A stretch of DNA of 62,604 nucleotides, counting the filler, from Globobulimina sp. (taxonomy: Eukaryota), in NCBI GenBank assembly GCA_003354225.1. It is 20 parts of 20 records of this genome, joined end to end, with 100 filler letters (N's around TTAATTAATTAA, not from the genome) between each part and the next. Parts side by side here need not be neighbours in the genome. Positions count along the whole stretch, not along the records: positions 34,500 to 37,534 come from PIVH01003940.1; 19 more parts are not named here. One strand, written 5' to 3'. Below the pieces are notes generated by a model. That model ran no database searches, was not told the origin of the DNA, and worked only from the letters and a program-made list of their open reading frames with translations. The position numbers and the translations under genes were made by a program. The stretch's first letter is position 1; every line of letters starts with the position of its first letter. This document shows positions 20,233 through 49,188 of this stretch, one piece after another.

Positions 20233-21855
20233 ATGGAAACGTTTCTAGAATACATTGGTTGTATGCGCAGCAACGAAGTCTGCATTGTATCTCTATCATT
20301 AATTGTTTTAATAGATATTTTGGTGGTACCTAGCTCCATATACATAACGTACAAATTTTATTGCATTGCTCATGATCAAGTCAATTTTCATCGATATCCA
20401 ATGACTGTAATTACAATATCCATATTAAATATCATCTATATATTTATTTTTGACCAATATCAGATCATTTTAAATGGTATCACGAATAAAGTAACTTTTT
20501 GGATGGTACCAGTCTTGGATGGACCTTTTTTTTTGATGATCTTAGTTATAGGGGTTTTCAGAGTTTTGTTAATCAATTATGACATAAATTATTCAATCAT
20601 ACAATCCAGACAGAATTGGCAATTACTTTTAACATCAGCAGGTATATTAATATATTTATATCGCAAAATCGCAAAACTGTACATATAATTACTACAAAAC
20701 AACAGTAAATGATGAATGGTATTCACGTAATAGACACAAATGGGGAAACTATAGATATTTGCTCAAAGTAATTATGTGTTTCTGGATTATATTATCAATT
20801 ATATGCTTTATACCATTATTTTTGCAGCATTTGAACGTAATAAAACATGCTTTTAAGGCATCGGAAATTGTATACTTCTCCATCATCATTATGCTAGTAT
20901 TGTTTGTTGGGATTATTTGGTATAAAACCCCACATTTTGATGATTGTTTTTTTATTTTCAAAGAAATTAAATTATTAATTCAAGCGTATATTATTTGTTG
21001 TATCATATGGTTCGGTTTAATGTATTTTGTTGAAACTGGAAATATATTTGCCATTCTTCAAATATTTATGATCGTCGTTTTTAATTTTATTCAAATATTT
21101 ATATCTGAATTTATTGTCGTATATTTCATCAAAAACAAAATAAATCAACCAAATAATACTACGAAAAACGTTAAAAACGCGAATGATGCAAAAAACATAA
21201 AAAACGCTAAACTTTTTACTGTTTTAATATCGTCAGATATTGGCATTGAAGAATATGCAAAACATTTACAGCATGAATTTTGCATGGAAAATTTATTATT
21301 TTTCATTGAAATTATGCAATGGATTTACGCAGTGACAGAACAGAAGTGGTATAAATATGATGTATCCCCATTAAGTACCAATAATATTAAATATAAATTT
21401 GCCAAAATTATCCCCATATCGTCAATAAATGGCGACACTGAGACAGATTGGTATGCTAAAATTGAGAAAATCTACAAAAAATACGTGCATACATCAGCTG
21501 AACACCAAATAAATGTTCCATATCGGATACGAACAGAGTTCCAAACCTTATTACAATTATATGACATAAAAAAACAGATTGCAGCTCAAGTATATGAACC
21601 AAAGTTAGTTAAAAAATCAACTAAAAGATATTCGAGAACGTCTTCATTTTGGAACCAATCCAAAACAAAATTATGGACATTACGAAAACGCAAAGTACCG
21701 ATCTTGAAGCCAGAGCAAAATATAACATTAACATCCGGCAATACAACAGTGAGCATCCCGGAGCAGATCAAATACAGTCAGTCATTACAAACTATTGATG
21801 TTAATATTGAGTTCAGTCAATTGGAGCGAGCAAACACTTCACCCACAGGATTGGC
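20233..21855 (+). CDS. 7TM-RGS protein, 2 exons, 3'-truncated
   Basis: Intron 20642..20705 joins the two ORFs in frame. About 7 TM segments precede RGS motifs YAKHLQHEFCMENLLFF and IYKKYV...HQINVPYRIR. Confidence 0.8.
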
Positions 21856-23377: not shown

Positions 23378-24817
23378 ATGTGCTTAAATAAAAGCTGCGT
23401 ACTAGAAACAAAGTTGTATCGATATATATTGAATGTATTGAATGGGAAATATGTGTGTAATGAGGATGGTTTATTGTATTACAAATATAAAGAAAACGAA
23501 TATAAAATCGTCGTACCTGACACTTTAAAGAAATCCATAATGAATAACGCCCACGATTTGATCCATAATGGCAGCGGCAAAATGTATATGTTGATACTAA
23601 CCGAATATTGGTGGCCCAAAATGAAAGTTGAGATTGCGAATTACTGCAAAAGCTGTGTAGGTTGCCAGTGTGTAAAAGGTATCAAATATAAGGAAAAGAG
23701 AGGGAAACTTAACTTGTTTCCAGCAACACGACCCTTTGAACGAATAAGTGTTGATATTGTTGGGCCTTTACCCAAAACTGACGATGACTTCCAATACTTA
23801 TTAACGATAATTGATAAATTTTCTAGATATTGCATGATAATCCCAATAAAAGATACTTTAACACCGACCGTAATACGCGCCATCGAGCGATGGTACACTA
23901 CCTTCGGTCCACCTAACCTATCCGATAACGGCTCGCAATTCCTATCAAGAGCATATCAACATTTTCAAAATTCAAACAAAGTAAATATAAAATACATAAC
24001 TGCGTATCATCCGGAGTGCAATGGACAAATCGAACGGCTCCACCGATGGATAAAGGAGCGACTAGCACTGCTCGCACATGATTTAGGTTTGGAATTCGCG
24101 GTCGGAGCCGCATACCAATGCGATAACTGGACACATTATATCCCATTGATCCAATATTGCTATAATACGATGATAAATCGAATGACAATGTATACGCCAT
24201 TCGATATCGTTTTTGGTACAAATCCTCGAGATATGGATGCATTGAAATGCGACCCAAAATGTCCAGATATATACAAAAAATACATGGCAGTGCGTATAAA
24301 ATTAATACATGAACGAGCACGACAAAAGCAATTAAATTATGATAAAATTCGCAAGAAATACTATGATAAGCATCGACATGAAATAAAAGTTGAAATAAAT
24401 GATTTAATAATGTATGATATATCGCAAAATATGACAAAGAATGAAAAGTCATTAATACCAAATTATGTCGGCCCATATAAAGTGATTGAAACGATGAATG
24501 AAAATAAAACTTTAAAAATCCAAGATATTGATAAGTTATATGATCCATTTTGGACCGATATAATGCATTGTAAGCCATATCACGATGGCCAGACGAGTCA
24601 AATTGATGCGTTATTGATATATACGAAATATAATATTGACAACATTGATAAACAGATTGCAAATGATACGAATAATAAAAACGAATTATACAAATTATCC
24701 AAATTACAATATTATAATAAATTAATGTGTGCCTATTATTTACACCCATTATTGCAGATAAATAATAAGCCGAAGGATCAAATATTTCTGGATATGATTG
24801 ATCCGACTGATGACTGA
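23378..24817 (+). CDS. Ty3/Gypsy-type DDE integrase
   Basis: HHCC zinc finger (AHDLIH...YWWP...CKSCVGC), SVDIVGP, SDNGSQF-D35E-NGQIERLH, TPFDIVFG and GPY (YVGPYKV). Confidence 0.9.
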   Translation: MCLNKSCVLETKLYRYILNVLNGKYVCNEDGLLYYKYKENEYKIVVPDTLKKSIMNNAHDLIHNGSGKMYMLILTEYWWPKMKVEIANYCKSCVGCQCVKGIKYKEKRGKLNLFPATRPFERISVDIVGPLPKTDDDFQYLLTIIDKFSRYCMIIPIKDTLTPTVIRAIERWYTTFGPPNLSDNGSQFLSRAYQHFQNSNKVNIKYITAYHPECNGQIERLHRWIKERLALLAHDLGLEFAVGAAYQCDNWTHYIPLIQYCYNTMINRMTMYTPFDIVFGTNPRDMDALKCDPKCPDIYKKYMAVRIKLIHERARQKQLNYDKIRKKYYDKHRHEIKVEINDLIMYDISQNMTKNEKSLIPNYVGPYKVIETMNENKTLKIQDIDKLYDPFWTDIMHCKPYHDGQTSQIDALLIYTKYNIDNIDKQIANDTNNKNELYKLSKLQYYNKLMCAYYLHPLLQINNKPKDQIFLDMIDPTDD

Positions 24818-34522: not shown

Positions 34523-36115
34523 TTAGTTTTTATCGGGAATATTTAAAGAAATTGTCTGAAAATGCTGGATTTCTTTACATGCCACATTGAATTCAGCCGT
34601 TTGCTTAAATCTTAAAAATGCTCCATGCATCAAATGAAACATGCTCGTTGTCACATCATCGTACAACGAAAACAGCTCATTTGGGTTAATATTGAAGTCC
34701 ATGAAAAAAGCCGCATCATCCATTAAACCGGTTAGCCGCAATCGGCCATCGTATGCAATATTAACCTCTAATTCAGAACCGGTTTCGATATATTTCTTAT
34801 ACAATTTCAAACAAACGTGCTTTGCCTGAGTCATGAGAGTCGAGTGATTATCATTGAATTTGTACTTCGCTAAATCGCCAAATCCTTCTCGGTTAATAAC
34901 AGACGTTGGCACAACTTCACTCATCGGACATTGCAGTCCGACCTCCATTTCGTCCGTGATTGCCTTCTCATCAATAATGTCAAACCTTTGTTTAAAGGCA
35001 AATTTATATTGAATCGTTTCCACGAAACACAGCAAACATTCAGTGCTAATTTCCTTCGCTAAGTGCTGCATAAATATTTTGAAGCTCCTCTCATTTGACA
35101 GTATTTTGGGTAATTTATACGATTTATGCAAGCTTGGTTGGAGTTGGTTTGCTGACAATCTGCGAACAATCGGCGCCAACTGCAGCTTGTTGGTGTATGT
35201 GTAACTGGTTGGAGTACTCGTGTCATTATTGGAGCTTTTCCGCTTCATCAAACGTACTAATTTGATTCTGTCCTCTTCGAAGCGAATTTTGCGTGGAATG
35301 AAAATAAAAGAGACCACAGCCATCGTATAGAATAATATCGCGCCACAAGCGGGCAACACCATTAATATTACATCCATGGAATAGATACCAATTAAAAAGG
35401 AAATAATAGCAAAGGAGTTGACCGCCGCAGACGCATAGGAAACGATTTTCATTTCTTCGCGAAGGAAAAAATGATCTCGATATTCAGGTGTAACATAATA
35501 GAAAATAAAAGGAATGGCCGCAGCGATCGCGTTCCAAAATGTAGTATGAATGTGGGCTATCATTATATGAGGGGTCGTAAGCAAAAATTGATTGGCTGTC
35601 ACTATGACTGCTACATTGAACAAGTAATACGAAACAACTATTTTCTGTGTATATTGCTGCGATCCATAATCTTTTTTGTGTGTGAGCCAGAAATTGTGTT
35701 TAACCAAAGACGGATCCAAATGGAATTTCCATTCGCTATTTTCCTGCGACGCGGAATATTTTAAATCAAAATAAATATGCCAAAATCGCCAGGCTGCAGT
35801 TATAAAAATGCCAATTACTAAGAATGAATATAATGTGGAATCAAAACGGGAAACTATGAGTTGTGTCTTTGCATCAAATTGATCAAAATAACACCAATCT
35901 GTCGACATTATCGGATAATTGAAAGTGAGGAATGACAAAATGAAAATGCCATTAATTGTTAATATTTTAGGATATCGTTTTTGAATCATAATAGAACTGC
36001 GTGATTTGGAAAATCTATAAACGAAATATATGAGTGTCGGGATGCCAATGACGTAATTGCAAATTTGTTGAACAACGACCCATATAAATTTTACATTGTC
36101 GTGAATAACTACCAT
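34523..36115 (-). CDS. 7TM-RGS protein
   Basis: 530 aa with about 7 TM segments, then FMQHLAKEISTECLLCFVE, LYKKYIETGSELEVNI and FLRFKQTAEF. Paralogous to the gene at 20233. Confidence 0.85.
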   Translation of the reverse strand: MVVIHDNVKFIWVVVQQICNYVIGIPTLIYFVYRFSKSRSSIMIQKRYPKILTINGIFILSFLTFNYPIMSTDWCYFDQFDAKTQLIVSRFDSTLYSFLVIGIFITAAWRFWHIYFDLKYSASQENSEWKFHLDPSLVKHNFWLTHKKDYGSQQYTQKIVVSYYLFNVAVIVTANQFLLTTPHIMIAHIHTTFWNAIAAAIPFIFYYVTPEYRDHFFLREEMKIVSYASAAVNSFAIISFLIGIYSMDVILMVLPACGAILFYTMAVVSFIFIPRKIRFEEDRIKLVRLMKRKSSNNDTSTPTSYTYTNKLQLAPIVRRLSANQLQPSLHKSYKLPKILSNERSFKIFMQHLAKEISTECLLCFVETIQYKFAFKQRFDIIDEKAITDEMEVGLQCPMSEVVPTSVINREGFGDLAKYKFNDNHSTLMTQAKHVCLKLYKKYIETGSELEVNIAYDGRLRLTGLMDDAAFFMDFNINPNELFSLYDDVTTSMFHLMHGAFLRFKQTAEFNVACKEIQHFQTISLNIPDKN

Positions 36116-36214
36116 GGTTAGCTTATTTAGCTAGAAAACATTAAAGTTTTAGCTAGAAAAAAGTCAATAATATCCTGCCAAAGTTTTTAATTTAATTTAG
36201 CTAGCAATCGCATT
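36116..36214. promoter_or_regulatory. 99-bp divergent intergenic region with three TTTAGCTAG motifs
   Basis: Copies at 36126, 36148 and 36196, each with the palindromic core TAGCTA, between two divergent ATGs. The regulatory role is inferred. Confidence 0.4.
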
Positions 36215-37321
36215 ATGAACTCTATTCTCCAAAAAGCAGTTCGTCATATCCCAGCGATACGAAATCCAAGAACCGGTGTACCATTTCTTTCGACAGACTT
36301 ATTATATTCGCGTTACAATTACCATGGCCCTCATTCAGCATTAAAATGGATCCATGCCAAGGCCAATGATTTTTGTGTTAACGAGTTAGAAATGAATGTC
36401 CACCCTCATCCAGGATCAGTGGGCTCTTTTTATTATCCCGACGCGACTGATTTGCATCGTGTAATGGTGGCGTCGAGCTGGTTTATGGTAATATTTTATT
36501 TGGACGATTTATGTGATGAACCCGAGAAATTCATGCAAGACAATCCAGGGCATATACAAAAGTATTCTGGTCTGAATTTTATGGATCAAATGGAAAAAAC
36601 AATCGATCGCATTTTAGATAACCCAGATTATGAACTATCTGACTTCGAAACGAGCATTCCTGTTTATTCGGGCTTATCCAAATTAGTTAAACACACCGTA
36701 GCCGACATTGAGAATTGCGAATTCATCCAACGGTATTTATCCAACGTCAAACAATGTATTCATCGCATTATCACAGAGCCGAAATCGACAGATGTCGAAG
36801 TAAATGATATCAATGAATATATCAAAATTCGTAAGAAGGAGTCTGGCTTATTTTGGGTGATTAACCTCATTGAATATGTGCATAATAATTATTTAACCGA
36901 GTATGCAGACATTGTGTCTGTAATTCCAGAGTTGCAAACCGCGCAGGAATTGGCGTGCGCGACTTATGCATTAGGCAATGATATGCACGGATACATTAAC
37001 GATATGCACAGAGATAATACGTTAATAAATGTAGTGTTGAAATCGCGGTATGACAATAATATGTTGTTTTTGCCGCATGCAATCGATGAAGCATTGGCTG
37101 TTGTTAATCAATTATATGTTGCAGCGAATGATGTCATTGATAGATGTTCGCATTTAGCTGAAGAGAATAAGGGTTTTCTGTCTCTGTCTGCGCAGCAAAT
37201 TGGAAGTGTTAAGTTACTTTGTGAAGGAATGAAAACAATAATGATGAGCGAATTTCATTACGCAAACGCGGGTCCACGCTATAAATCAAAACATCATTTT
37301 ATGATTGATATGCGATTATAA
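36215..37321 (+). CDS. Class I (microbial-type) terpene synthase/cyclase
   Basis: DDxxD (YLDDLCDE), PPi-sensor Arg (YIKIRKKESG), NSE/DTE-like LGNDMHGYIND and C-terminal YxxxxxRY (YANAGPRY). Single domain, 368 aa, no introns. Confidence 0.82.
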   Translation: MNSILQKAVRHIPAIRNPRTGVPFLSTDLLYSRYNYHGPHSALKWIHAKANDFCVNELEMNVHPHPGSVGSFYYPDATDLHRVMVASSWFMVIFYLDDLCDEPEKFMQDNPGHIQKYSGLNFMDQMEKTIDRILDNPDYELSDFETSIPVYSGLSKLVKHTVADIENCEFIQRYLSNVKQCIHRIITEPKSTDVEVNDINEYIKIRKKESGLFWVINLIEYVHNNYLTEYADIVSVIPELQTAQELACATYALGNDMHGYINDMHRDNTLINVVLKSRYDNNMLFLPHAIDEALAVVNQLYVAANDVIDRCSHLAEENKGFLSLSAQQIGSVKLLCEGMKTIMMSEFHYANAGPRYKSKHHFMIDMRL

Positions 37322-40779: not shown

Positions 40780-43700
40780 TTATTTATGATAATACTTGTA
40801 ATCTAAATGAATATTTGCATCATTTTCATTTAATCCTTCAATTCCAATATATATTTTAATTTGCGTATCACCAAAAAAGAAAGCAATGGGAATATCATTC
40901 GAATCATTATTTTTATTTATCCATTCTTTTGGTAATCTAATTTTTTTGGTTGCCAATAATTTACATTTCCTGTCATCGGTAAATAATCTCATTTTTTTTT
41001 CTTCCTCCCTTTCCTCTTCAAATTCAAATAATTTTATCTCAATCACTTGCGAATCTTTGTCAATCGGTTTAAAATATTGTATCTTTGGCGGATCGTCAAT
41101 CTGTAATTCATCGCCGCAGCTCACAAATTTATAAAACACACAATCAACAAATTTATTCTTCAAATGCCCATCTAACACTATTTTATCTGCGATATATTTC
41201 TCATTTTCATATTTGTCTAACAATGATACGCCATCATCATTTTCTTCCTCATCTACCTCAACAGCGACATCTGTATCATTCCTATACGTAATATATTGAT
41301 TGTATGTATCTTCAAAATCACGTAAACTTTGTCTTATTTCTATGCCAATGGTGTTTCGCAGTATTCTCGATTTCACATAACATTGATTCTTGCAATACAA
41401 CGCAGCCCCGGTCACGACCTGTAATATCGGTCTGCGTGGAATCACAATCCGCAATTTATACTTTGATCTCATCCCAAACATATTTAACAATTTATATCCC
41501 ACATATTTGGATTCACAAAAACCTCCCGCTAACAATAAATATTTAAACTCGTGTTTGACTGACAATTTATCGATCAAATCCGAGATATGATTACAAATTG
41601 GAATTACTACGCAATCGAATAAATATTGCCATACAATGTCATGTATTTTTAAATGCTGATCCTCTAACACCAAATACCCGCATTCTACGCCAATGTTCTG
41701 ATTGGAATAATCATTGAATAATGTCTCCAGTTTTTGAACATCCACATCTTCGTCTTCCACCATTGTATTATTAATATTTTCCAACTTCTCCTCCAAAAAC
41801 TGAATGAATTCAAATGGTAATTTAACATTATGATAACTGGCCACTCCGACCTTATCATCGCAAAACGTTCCATCAAAGTTACGTTTCTGCCAAAAATTGT
41901 GCTTCGAAATTTGGAAAAAATGCAGCAATTCCACATATTTGTGAGGCTCATTGATTTTAAATTCTTTCATCCACCGTTTGGATATTATTTTGCTTAATAA
42001 ATTCACAAACTCCTCGTCAATGAATGTAGAGCCAAAGGGACCTCCCGACGGCTTATAGATTTCGCGCACATTGTATTGTGACAAGATTTCATGGCAAACC
42101 AAGTCGGCAGTCCCGCCGCCTAAATCCGCCAATATATACTTCTCGCCTCGCGCAAAGAATTTGTCTCGTTCAGAAAAAGCTGATTTCTTCACATTTGACA
42201 GTTTTTCCTTTTCCTCCATATCATAACCAGGCGTTTCTACATTTTTATTCTGCTTTTTCTTTTGTTTCGGTTTAGTTTTCTGTTTATAATCATCGTTGTC
42301 ATAGTCATCATTATCACTGTCACTGTCAAACAAATCAGGGCCAAACATCGAAGTTCCTTTGCCAAGCTTTCGCTGATTAGTAGCCGTATTATTTTTGTTT
42401 GCGATTACTTTTTTTTTAAGTGTTTGAAATCTTTGTTTCTTTTGGGTTTGGTATTCGTGCTGAATAGCAATAGAAGCACAATCTGGTTCAAATGCAATGA
42501 TCAAATGATTGGTGATGTTGGTATTAATTAAGCCCGATTTTGCAGCACAATGCATCATAATTCCTTTGCTGCGATGGGACCAAATTGCGGGTACAGTTAA
42601 TACCCATTGACAATCATCCACAGCCACATCCAAACCATTTCTATTCATTACATGCAAAGCATGCGTTTTTACAAATTTTAGTGCTTCGATGATAACCGTT
42701 TTTGAGTCGCATTTTTCTCCATTGATTGCGGTCAATTCTTCATTAATATCTTCTTTTTCGTCATCTTTTGATGAGTCAATTGCAAACAATGCCATTTTAA
42801 ATTTCTCAAAAAACAATAAATCATTTTTCTCCTCCTCCTCCTCTTCATCTTCATCATCAACCTCCAGTTTCATGTACATTTCCCGCGCTCTCTGCCCAAA
42901 TGCAACATGTCTAAAACCATTGTTTCTGTCCAATAAAATATTTGTTTTTAATTTTGTGTCAACAATTCTGTCATCGCCACCCCAGTCTGCACATAACATA
43001 AACATATCCATTAAAATATATATATACAAACAAATTAAAGAATATTCAACTAACATACCAGGACAATACACCTCGTCGTCATGCGGCAAACAGTACGAAA
43101 ATGCGGTGCCATCCGTTCCAAAGTCGATGCCACAAAAAACTTTAAATATATGATTTTGCTTTGCGTCGAGGAACAATCTCCGTGCGCGCTGTTGTATTAT
43201 TTGTGTATGTTTCACTTGTTTCGATATGGTAATTGCAGTCGATATCGAATGATAAACGGCACCAAATAATTGCTGACACGCTGTCAATTCACTCGTATTC
43301 ACAGTATATTCTATATTTGCTCCACTTTGCTTGAATACATCGATCATTTTATTCACATTCTTTGTTTTCGACGCAATGTGATATTCAATTCTTTTCTCTT
43401 TCATTGCCAATAAAATGTCTTCGTGGTCTGCATCCTTTGCATGTTTATCAGGAAACCGATCTCGTTCCTTCTTTCGGGATGAAATATATTGCTGCAATGC
43501 CTCTTGTCGACGCGTATCATTTTCAAATTGAAATATCCAGGCAAATTCCCACGAATCTCGACCAAAAATATCCGCACAAATCTCCGAATCATACTGCATA
43601 AATTCCATGAGTTGCAATCTGTTTTCCTCGATTTCGTCAAAAAAAGAATGATATTGGACACCGTGCGGAGGGTCGTCACAAATATGGAATAATACTTTGG

Positions 43701-44198: not shown

Positions 44199-45913
44199 TT
44201 AACGAGAATAAAAATTACAATTTGAGAATGTACAATTTTGAAATATCCTTTCCATCGATTCTTGATTGCCACCGTTTCCATTGCCATTGCCATTGCCACC
44301 ATCGCCATTGCCATCATTTGGCATTGATACATTAATATCGATATCCATTGATTGATTATTATTATTTCTTTGTTGATTTGCTAATTGTAATTGATTATTA
44401 TTTGATTTTTCCTCTTCTTCTTCACTTTTCTCCTCATCCTCATCCATAAAAACCACCTCATTCATAATATCTGCCGCTTTACGTTTATTTCTTATCGCAT
44501 TATCAAAATAACTCTCTGCGATTTGATCACTTTTCCAATCGCCAAACTTCTTTAATTGTAATAATGTGACCTGGACAGACAAAAAAAGTAAGTGTTTGTC
44601 AAAAAAAAGAGACTTTACATACTTCTCCTTTACAAAAATTCGATGCCGCCGTCCGCCGAATAGTATGTCCCGTATATCTCCACCAATTCGCTAATCCTAA
44701 TTCCTTTGCTATTTTCTTTGTGTTTTCACCAAAATATCCACGTCCAAGAGGTTGATAATGGTGGCGATATCGCCCCGTTTTTTTACTTTTTCTTCGTTGC
44801 CATAAAAATCTTGATCCATATCGTCCACCTTTGCGATTCCAATATTTCTTTGTAACTTTCATATATTTCAATATCCGATCCACCGATTTCTTGTTTGTTA
44901 CCATAAAATTTGTAAATTTCTTCGTCTTTGCTTTATAATAATAAAATCTTACCGCTTTCATTGACTTTGATAATGAATTCTTTTTTGATCCATGTTTTGT
45001 GGCTGTTTTTGTTTAAAAACACAAAATAAATACAAAATAAATATAAATATAACATACTATTATGATAAATGACTATTTTTTCATCATCGGATCTATGATG
45101 ATACAAATTCGTATAATCAATGGGTCTGAAACACCCATTTAATCCCACAATCAATGTAATTTTATCTGCCATAAATTCTTCATCGTCCGCATCACTTAAA
45201 AACTGCCTTATTTCTTCCGCTTTAAATACCGCTGCCTTTTTAACCGACTTTCCCTCCGCATACCGCTTCAACCATTTCCTTGCCAATGCCCATGATTCCG
45301 TATTAATGTCATACTTCGTTAATAATATTGATTTTATGCCACTATAATAAGTGTACATACTCGTATGCGCCGCGCCGATATCACTCATAGTTTCAAACCA
45401 CATCATCATCGTTGTTTCATTCAGCTCCAATTTGTATTCAATAACGAATTTATTGAATCGATTAAAATATTTTGTATATGTGCCAGCACTCGCTGTTGGC
45501 AATAAATTTGACTTTGAACGGTTGATTAATCCATTTAATGTTTGATTAATTGCTGTATCTTCATTTAATTGAATAATATTGATATTTGCATCAATATTCG
45601 ATGCGTTATGATCATCGACAGATTCTTGTTTATCTGACGATATTATTTTTGGTATATTTATATTTGAAAACAGATTAATATCTGCTTCTAATAAATTGAA
45701 TATTGCATAGTTTTGATTAATAATTTGATTTGAATTAATTGTATTATTGACTGTGTTGAGAATATATTGATTTTTGAATGATATTAATGGGAATGTCCAT
45801 GCATGAAATTGAGGAATAGACTGTGTTGACTGTAGCATATCGATGCATATAATGACTGTGATGATCAGTGTGTGAGTAGACACGACTAAGTGCGACATAA
45901 TGACATGTTGCAA
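44199..45913 (-). CDS. Tyrosine recombinase, 3 exons
   Basis: GT-AG introns 45003..45057 and 44571..44622 fuse three ORFs in frame. Catalytic set: R (NGCFR), K (KAKTK), HxxR (GHTIRRT), W (FGDWKS), Y (AESY). An N-terminal core-binding-like region is present. The start codon is uncertain. Confidence 0.88.
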
Positions 45914-47038: not shown

Positions 47039-49188
47039 AATTAGCACAAAACTTAAACAAAAACGATTTGAATGAGATAATCAATTCCATCCACACAATG
47101 TCAATCAATCCAAATGATATCGATAATAGTAATAACAGACAGGTTATTGATGAAAATATTAAGCTATCGTCAGATTTAAAATGCACATTATATCCCCATC
47201 AGACATATGGCTATCAATGGATGATAACTCGGGAAACCCATTGCTGTGATGGCCAACCGTATGGCGGTATAATTGCGGATGAAATGGGTTTGGGCAAAAC
47301 AATGCAAATGATCGCTCTCATATTATCTAAACATAATATTCCAGTTCAACTTCCACATAATAATGATTTTCAAGCATGCGACAGTACGTTAATAATATGC
47401 CCAGTCTCTGTAATGAATCATTGGGAGAATGAGATCCGAAAACACACAAAACGCGGTGTCTTAGTCATACATAGATATCACGGAAATAATCGCTGCAAAA
47501 ATATAAAAAAATTAATAGCAAATTATAATGTAATTATAACGACTTATGGTTCTGTTCAAAGTGAATGGAATGGATGGAAAAAATTAGACGATGACCGAGG
47601 GAGTAAAATCAAAGAGATTCGGAAACAAATAGTTATGCTACAAAGACCATATATGAACAGGATACATAATGAGGAGAATGTGAGCAAATTGAAGAAATTA
47701 AAAATAAAATTACAAATGTTGCTCACTAAGAAATATAAAAAACCAATTTTATCCGAGATTTGTTTTCGTCGCATTGTGTTGGATGAAGCGCATCAAATTA
47801 AAAATTATAAATCAAAAACGCATAAATCTATTTGTGATCTATCGGCAAAGTGTTATTGGTTTATGACTGCCACGCCGATACAGAATAGTTTGGATGACTT
47901 ATATGCGGCATTCCATTTTTTGAAATATAAATATTACTCCAATTATAATAACTGGAAACAAGCAATCTTGACTCATTCGAGAGGTATACAGAAAATAAGG
48001 ACACTTTTGGCGATTATTATGTTGCGCCGAATGAAAAAAGATTATATTAAAAGTGATATTGAGTCACTTGACATTGACAGAGAAGATAAGAAAGTCATAC
48101 ACTTACCGCCAAAAAAGGCGGTGACACATTTAATTGAATTTAATGAGTATGAAAGATTTATTTATAAGCAGTTGGCGACCAATATGACGAAAATATTTGC
48201 TGGTTATCAAGAAAATAATTCCGTTGGAAAGAATTTCAGTCAATGTTTAAAAATGTTGTTGCAATTAAGACAGGCTTGCAATCATTTGATATTAATAAAA
48301 AATAGTGTTTATACAATACATTCAATATTAAAAAGTGGAGAAGATGACAATAATAATATGGATATTTCACAGTTGTTATCGGTTATGAATGAAAATGATA
48401 TGAATCATAGCGACGAATATCTGACAGAGATTAAAAATGCATTAGAATCGGGGAATGATGAATGTCCATTTTGCTTAGATACGATTGAAAATGTATCAAT
48501 TACAGATTGTGGGCATCGGTTTTGCACTCAATGTATAAATCAAATTATTGAGGAAAAAGAACGGGCTTTACAGAGAAAATTAAAATCAATTTATTCGACA
48601 AATAATTTGTATATTCAATGTCCGGTTTGTCGTAAAAAATTAAAAAAATCAAATATTACACAAATAATTGATAAAAATAAACAAAAGAATGGTACACAAT
48701 TTATAGAAAATGCAAATGAATATTTATGTAAACCCTCGTCAAAGTTGCAAAAATTAATGGAAATTCTTGAAAAGATAAAAGAAGAAGAAACATCATCTAA
48801 ATGTATTATATTTAGTCAATGGACATCAATGTTAGATATTATTGAGAAAGAATTAAAATATAACAATAAATATGGAGAATACTGTCGTTTGGACGGCAAA
48901 ATGACAGCCAATCAAAGAAGTAAAAGCATCAATAAATTAAATACGGATCGAAAGTGCTGGATAATGCTTATTTCATTAAAAGCAGGTGGTGTTGGATTAA
49001 ATTTAGTTGCCGCCAATCATGTATTTTTAATGGATATTTGGTGGAATCCAGCAGTCGAAGATCAAGCAATGGACAGAGTTCATAGAATTGGACAAACCAA
49101 AAATGTTACAATGCATAGGATTGTTATTGATAATTCTGTTGAACAAAAAGTGTTAACATTACAAGATAAAAAAAGGAAAATTGCGTAA
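47039..49188 (+). CDS. Rad5/Rad16/HLTF-like SNF2 helicase with RING finger, 5'-truncated
   Basis: GGIIADEMGLGKT, LDEAH, TATPIQN, LRQACNH, RING (CPFC...CGHRFC...CPVC), FSQW, SLKAGGVGLNL and WWNPAVEDQAMDRVHRIGQ. The frame continues past TAA 49186 to 49338. Confidence 0.92.

Follow-up and report, generated by a model that had tools for sequence, protein, structure and literature searches.

Positions 36215-37321 of the window encode an intact member of the class I microbial-type terpene synthase family, and the gene looks like one of the host's own. The window is the whole stretch of Globobulimina sp. DNA that was analysed (62,604 nucleotides, N's included), and is made up of 20 separate contigs, each ~3 kb long, with N linkers in between; the gene sits on the contig at 34500-37534 (G000:C3940). 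It is a single-exon ORF on the + strand, 368 aa long with zero internal stops, and so is intronless as first described. The gene is conserved and host-encoded, belongs to a small foraminiferal family, and its product most likely works as a class I terpene cyclase. Taken as a whole, we think it probable that a foraminiferal nuclear gene here encodes a Mg2+-dependent class I terpene synthase acting by the mechanism proposed below. This is a known enzyme chemistry with a variant motif in a new eukaryotic lineage, and not a new kind of system.

Motifs, family and predicted fold

A Pfam scan matched the protein to Terpene_syn_C_2 (PF19086) far above chance, scoring 48 bits where the cut-off is 23.7 (E 1.7e-12). 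Together with a fold match at Z 29.7, this upholds the first-pass annotation, which had called the gene a microbial-type terpene synthase from four class I cyclase motifs. All four are present in the order it gave (Table 1), they correspond to the motif set described for class I terpene synthases (PMC13638087), and in an alignment they fall in matching columns of 172 other synthases. The sensor column holds Arg in 171/172 of those other rows, and R206 and G211 are both invariant in alignment A1. Likewise, the RY pair (R355-Y356) is in register with the family, as are N255, D256 and the acidic D263 with the canonical NDxxSxxxE, the Ser position being occupied by Gly. The same protein had 0 matches to PF00348 (trans-isoprenyl diphosphate synthase) at E<=1 in the Pfam scan, and its second metal site is of the NSE type and not a second DDxxD. 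The protein thus does not fit a trans-isoprenyl diphosphate synthase, and no clustering with prenyltransferases is supported.

Table 1. Location of the terpene synthase gene, its motifs and surroundings, and of the second subfamily (window positions unless a contig is named).
Feature	Location	Strand	Basis
Class I microbial-type (alpha-domain only) terpene synthase gene, 368 aa	36215..37321	+	ORF, PF19086, fold searches
Basic, acid-free N-terminal ~25 residues; candidate mitochondrial presequence (inferred)	36215..36289	+	charge rule
Asp-rich motif DDLCD, residues 97-101; expected Mg2+ A/C ligand	36503..36517	+	motif position, alignment
Pyrophosphate-sensor Arg206 and helix-G kink (RKKESG)	36830..36847	+	alignment
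Variant NSE motif NDMHGYIND, residues 255-263; Ser->Gly, Lys->Asn, Glu->Asp	36977..37003	+	alignment
YxxxxxRY motif YANAGPRY, residues 349-356; Trp->Tyr variant of WxxxxxRY	37259..37282	+	alignment
Intergenic region of 99 bp between divergent genes; three TAGCTAG copies (36128, 36150, 36198)	36116..36214	.	motif count
Neighbour, 530-aa 7TM-RGS-like host gene (context only)	34523-36115	-	ORF, family matches
Second-subfamily terpene synthase gene	G000:C1129 (L009:1009-2052)	-	PF19086
Second-subfamily terpene synthase gene	G000:C17471 (L006:150-1142)	-	PF19086

The structure model of the protein, built on a 15-sequence alignment, has a pLDDT of 88.5 and forms a single all-helical terpene synthase domain. 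With Foldseek, 37/37 of the matches listed were terpene synthases, the best being T-muurolol synthase (E 5.8e-9). A search independent of Foldseek, run against 48,161 chains, also placed T-muurolol synthase first (Z 29.7, rmsd 2.6, 293 residues, 16% identity), and its top rows were class I cyclases with Z 29.7-26 and identities of 10-17%. The nearest solved enzyme, T-muurolol synthase from Roseiflexus (9hqd/9hr0), has the same single alpha-domain fold, and the N-terminal domain of geosmin synthase (5dz2) and selinadiene synthase (4okm) are also among the nearest solved PF19086 cyclases. The foraminiferal protein matches these bacterial enzymes at Z 28.5-29.7 (rmsd 2.6-2.8 over ~295 residues), with DDxxD, sensor Arg, NSE position and RY pair in register. 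However, it is only 14-17% identical to them, reads NDxxGxxND at the NSE and has Tyr in place of the W of WxxxxxRY. Moreover, unlike the bacterial cyclases, it has a basic N-terminal extension and is encoded by a nuclear protist gene. The coral cembrene synthase (Z 19.9) and the Orpheovirus synthase (Z 21.6) stand below the bacterial enzymes in the fold ranking, the latter being the single match at E<=0.001 in a viral fold library. Many cyclases follow within ~2 Z units, and therefore the fold gives no pointer to the substrate. None of the solved enzymes among the fold matches exceeds 17% identity to the protein; with this distance and the unusual metal site, it could plausibly form new products or work by an altered mechanism.

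Gly at the Ser position of the NSE is tolerated in some plant enzymes, and our literature search found no paper on such sites. In our alignment, this column is Gly in 5/5 foraminiferal rows and Ser in 168/168 of the other rows with ND there, a contrast that is overstated because the 168-row set, which was not dereplicated, was shaped by a pattern requiring Ser (29 loci) and by recruitment through relatedness to one Streptomyces protein (80).

Paralogues, relatives and origin of the family

A close paralogue is split over two contigs of the same genome, C4311 (residues 1-286, 91% identity) and C2335 (residues 296-368, 88%), with flanks unrelated to those of C3940. The gap between them is bridged at ~87% identity by an X8 contig whose 3′ flank matches that of C2335, and the two pieces are probably one gene. 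The paralogues are under purifying selection: dN/dS is 0.07 at dS 0.64 between the 36215-37321 gene and the C4311 paralogue, and none of the 34 residues that differ is in a motif. The C4311 paralogue lies head-to-head with a small lysozyme/SLT-like ORF (L004:1052-1516, +), a possible pairing of two antibacterial functions that are perhaps adjacent by chance. Two further PF19086 genes, on C1129 and C17471, make up a second subfamily; they are 68% alike, each is ~20% alike to the 36215-37321 protein, and they have the motif NDILGFNKD and a canonical WxxxxxRY. A word-indexed search for homologues of C1129 yielded 0/790 candidates. The C1129 gene is located downstream of a TRM13-like methyltransferase. 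A fifth PF19086 match, on C4459, was below the cut-off and was rejected as a G-protein alpha-like ORF.

An exhaustive search of 1.84 billion representatives returned 15 homologues, the best of which was a Bolivina argentea EukProt protein (26% identity, E 5e-20). The named matches below it were Pontimicrobium and an Acidobacteriota polyprenyl-synthase fusion, and no microbial-type synthase of another eukaryote was among the named matches of this search. A word-indexed search with the query gave 0/1424 candidates, whilst a profile search gave only 5 proteins, bacterial where named. Scans with a pattern from the foraminiferal alignment found 0/333 stretches in metagenome contigs and 0/156 in viral contigs, and an exact look-up of four host proteins found 0 in the protein collection searched. 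Using the relatives from the exhaustive search, a scan of bacterial genomes recovered 29 loci, mostly from marine Flavobacteriaceae and Saprospiraceae. Bacterial relatives reach no more than ~30% identity to the protein and have a C-terminal tail in common with it (profile probability 99.8%, E 1.5e-29).

The nearest non-foraminiferal sequences form a subfamily of marine Bacteroidota, Chloroflexota and Acidobacteriota (Pontimicrobium, Tenacibaculum, Saprospiraceae, Aureispira) at 22-31% identity to the foraminiferal query. In contrast to the query, the bacteria keep NDxxSxxKE and some members are fused to a polyprenyl synthase. We found no characterised member of this Bacteroidota/Chloroflexota subfamily. 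Nor was there a conserved operon in the bacterial neighbourhoods, where 58 scanned proteins (53 from bacterial loci) included a single case each of a prenyltransferase fusion, a neighbouring P450 and a tandem synthase. Two Acidobacteriota proteins (L064:2705-4927 and P0011) have an N-terminal polyprenyl synthase fused to a C-terminal terpene synthase and are candidate bacterial bifunctional di- or sesterterpene synthases; the L064 fusion gene is followed downstream by a glycosyltransferase.

For the tree, 177 sequences were pooled once P0009 (a repeat protein) and five duplicate loci had been removed, and dereplication at 55% identity kept 62 rows. It was built without fungal, amoebozoan, animal or algal synthases, and its branches are long. 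In the careful tree, Bolivina groups with the query and its paralogue (support 100/99). A 25-row clade (96/86) unites Bacteroidota, Chloroflexota, Acidobacteriota and one cyanobacterial row with the query clade and the second host pair. A sister link to Bacteroidota had a support of 98 in the quick tree and <80 in the careful tree.

These data point to an ancient transfer, likely from bacteria in a tree that held no other eukaryotic synthase. The history we favour, with fair confidence, is that the family was acquired once from marine bacteria before the host and Bolivina split, and was then duplicated. A less likely alternative is that eukaryotes have long had the family or received it from an amoeba, fungus or alga, or that the two host subfamilies represent two acquisitions. 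It gains from the make-up of the tree and from the uncertain placement of C1129/C17471, on a branch of length 2.87, and a preprint on rhizarian gene transfer describes most transfers as eukaryote-derived (10.1101/2023.01.27.525846). However, after Bolivina the named matches of the exhaustive search are bacterial and have the C-terminal tail of the query, and all host copies have the Gly site and N-terminal make-up in common. Moreover, an AU test did not reject placing the five foraminiferal rows together in a single clade (p 0.40), which is compatible with one acquisition and is not proof of it.

Proposed function, location and precursor supply

In the mechanism proposed from what is known of the family, an allylic prenyl diphosphate would be bound via three Mg2+ coordinated by DDLCD and by the variant NSE, with the diphosphate gripped by Arg206 and the RY pair. 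The helix-G kink would then close the pocket, the diphosphate would depart, and the carbocation would be cyclised and quenched to a terpene hydrocarbon or alcohol.

An unlikely alternative to cyclisation is that the fold has been repurposed, either as a prenyltransferase onto a small nucleophile, as in DabA, or as an enzyme that does no more than ionise and hydrolyse its substrate to a linear alcohol, for example farnesol or nerolidol. The altered NSE and WxxxxxRY across the foraminiferal clade would fit such a change, as would the low identity to every solved enzyme, and both DabA (an N-prenyltransferase, Z 24.2) and FlvF (Z 20.1) have the same fold. However, 33 terpene synthases outrank DabA in the 48,161-chain search, and the relatives are all PF19086-type, two being fused to a polyprenyl synthase and one adjoining a P450.

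We give still less weight to a host-encoded pseudo-enzyme, catalytically dead and retained for binding or scaffolding. The changes in the NSE (S->G, K->N, E->D), by which the Ser ligand and the Lys are lost, and the W->Y change would affect metal and diphosphate ligands and would count against activity. In Physarum, an enzyme whose NSE is altered (NDxxLxxxE) yielded no product from GPP or FPP, although a canonical one failed too (PMC6902781), and a springtail enzyme bearing all four motifs is inactive (PMC13638087). Against this, all complete foraminiferal copies, even those only ~20% alike, keep both Asp motifs, the sensor Arg and the RY pair, and the paralogues have the low dN/dS given above. 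Moreover, PhmA, a solved diterpene synthase, is without any NSE motif according to the title of its structure entry.

The basic N-terminal extension noted in the first-pass annotation is borne out, residues 1-25 containing 4 K/R and 0 D/E, with the first acidic residue at 28 and a hydrophobic moment of 0.71. The N-termini of the host's mitochondrial Hsp60 and FPPS-like protein are similar (4/0 each, first acid at 30 and 39, respectively), and in each of the four host copies of the synthase residues 1-25 include 4 or more K/R and are free of D/E. An acid-free basic N-terminus of this kind was found in 0/28 control ORFs of the window and in 1/34 bacterial relatives; that of the Bolivina protein has 7 K/R and 1 D/E. 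In the structure model, pLDDT falls below 50 solely in residues 1-8, and residues 11-30 are confidently modelled within the fold. By this crude charge rule, import of the protein into mitochondria is somewhat favoured.

A supply of precursors can be traced in the genome, which has HMG-CoA reductase and three polyprenyl synthases, one FPPS-like and two prenyltransferase fusions. The FPPS-like gene (G000:C15143, L200) apparently contains an intron and encodes a long, basic N-terminus resembling a presequence; this enzyme, the one of its kind found, also seems to go to mitochondria. The first fusion (G000:C1204, L201:118-2475, +) is an uninterrupted ORF of ~800 aa with a C-terminal polyprenyl synthase fused to CrtC and Lipocalin_9. 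The second (G000:C346, L202:1327-3765, -), also ~800 aa with a C-terminal polyprenyl synthase, has an N-terminal part that looks like that of C1204, without a Pfam match. Small residues upstream of the first Asp motif of a polyprenyl synthase lead to longer chains. In both fusions the residues upstream of this motif are small, as in the bacterial fusion, which points to chains of C20 or longer, and this unusual isoprenoid fusion may supply or process C20+ chains. The HMG-CoA reductase is the N-terminal part of an 848-aa ORF (G000:C3248, L203:514-3057, +) and is followed by ~430 residues without a Pfam match; a second copy of the gene is on C119.

As substrate, FPP would have about an even chance, GGPP comes next as a possible but weaker candidate, and GPP or GFPP is improbable. 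For a mitochondrial enzyme FPP would be our first choice, followed by GGPP, because the FPPS-like enzyme is presequence-like and the fusions point to C20+. By inference, chemical defence or signalling is the most likely role of the products. A wider reading, in which an ancient, lineage-wide foraminiferal family, mitochondrion-targeted and of one bacterial origin, with a Gly-type NSE and distant subfamilies, makes undescribed sesqui- or diterpenes, is put forward tentatively.

The gene suggests that sea-floor foraminifera may make terpenes. If the wider reading is true, foraminifera would contribute terpenes to marine sediments without this having been recognised, and would be the first rhizarians to carry enzymes of this kind. 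Foraminifera are abundant and hard to culture, and single-exon genes are directly expressible, so that foraminiferal terpene production becomes testable without culturing. Synthases of this type have recently been reported from sponges and brown algae. Enzymes of the same class occur in social amoebae, Physarum, Naegleria, red algae, soft corals, mites, fungus gnats, springtails and giant viruses, whereas the foraminiferal family belongs to a different supergroup, Rhizaria. Carriers outside plants, fungi and bacteria have been listed as social amoebae, red algae, soft corals, viruses and mites (PMC11665903), and the synthases of these eukaryotes are described as forming small gene families that have diverged and whose origin is unclear or horizontal (PMC11665903, PMC6902781, PMC13638087). 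Each new eukaryotic group (amoebae, red algae, corals, arthropods) opened its chemistry, often with new skeletons (PMC11665903, PMC13638087). As the first-pass annotation had supposed, no characterised foraminiferal example came to light: among the best matches in the open literature, with most subscription journals and preprint supplements outside the search, we found no paper on rhizarian or foraminiferal terpene synthases. The main text of the rhizarian gene-transfer preprint, for its part, does not contain 'terpen' (10.1101/2023.01.27.525846).

Host identity and surroundings of the gene

Large actin and tubulin families are typical of foraminifera, and this genome has 116 actin and 101 tubulin matches. 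With the best match in Bolivina, these families make it very probable that the host is a foraminifer; a genome search for foraminiferal SSU rRNA under a strict filter gave no match. The eukaryotic host assumed earlier is confirmed and is rhizarian, because two intron-containing polyubiquitin genes (G000:C12044 and C40513) have a single Ala inserted at the monomer junctions, and a one- or two-residue insertion there is a rhizarian signature (PMC3014934).

The synthase gene lies head-to-head with its neighbour, 99 bp apart. The neighbour resembles eukaryotic 7TM-RGS clusters (Atlas 0.94) and has 89 matches within the same genome; it had no Pfam match. The window ORF at 20774-21855 also belongs to a large 7TM-RGS-like family, with a Pfam RGS domain. 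The first-pass annotation had taken the contig shared with a eukaryotic gene as an argument against bacterial contamination. The eukaryote-like character of the neighbour holds, but this is the weakest of the arguments because the join of gene to neighbour is unconfirmed, no piece bridging 36122-36196 being among the pieces of run contigs listed.

Better arguments than the contig for a host gene are the paralogues and the selection on them, co-divergence, the codon usage and an orthologue in Bolivina. In three other studies, the runs contain both the synthase gene and its neighbour at matching identity (synthase/neighbour: X4 ~99% for both; X6 94.0%/94.0%; X8 93-94%/~94-95%), X1 having been left out of the population support as a possible source sample. 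Third codon positions account for 11/15 of the differences listed inside the synthase gene. Its codon score of +0.050 equals that of the neighbour and lies within the range of 17 window ORFs (-0.03 to +0.12), whilst only 1/61 Bacteroidota ORFs reaches +0.050. Intronlessness was dropped as evidence on host or bacterial origin, since the neighbour and many long window ORFs are also uninterrupted, and GC content was dropped for either origin. It is highly improbable that the gene came from a bacterial symbiont, prey or another eukaryote by way of a chimeric contig: the assembly is highly fragmented (48,370 contigs), its source organism is taken to be of an uncultured type and the nearest non-foraminiferal relatives are marine Bacteroidota, but four other contigs carry family members, with eukaryote-type neighbours on those examined, gene and neighbour co-diverge in independent studies, codon usage is host-like, and the closest relative is in another foraminifer and not in the far more distant bacteria.

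All three TAGCTAG matches of the window are within the intergenic region; window-wide the motif, chosen post hoc, is not enriched (3 seen against 1.65 expected). A rare 11-mer, TAGCTAGAAAA, has 36 matches in 70 Mb, of which two are in 36116-36214 and one is ~140 bp upstream of the paralogue (G000:C4311:998-1008), where the upstream DNA of the paralogues otherwise does not align. These repeats in 36116-36214 are a candidate cis-regulatory element.

Elsewhere in the window are a tyrosine-recombinase-like ORF (44933-45898, -) and, recognised by eye, ORFs resembling a retrotransposon integrase (23378-24817, +), Hsp70 (40780-43608, -) and a SNF2-RING helicase (47098-49188, +).
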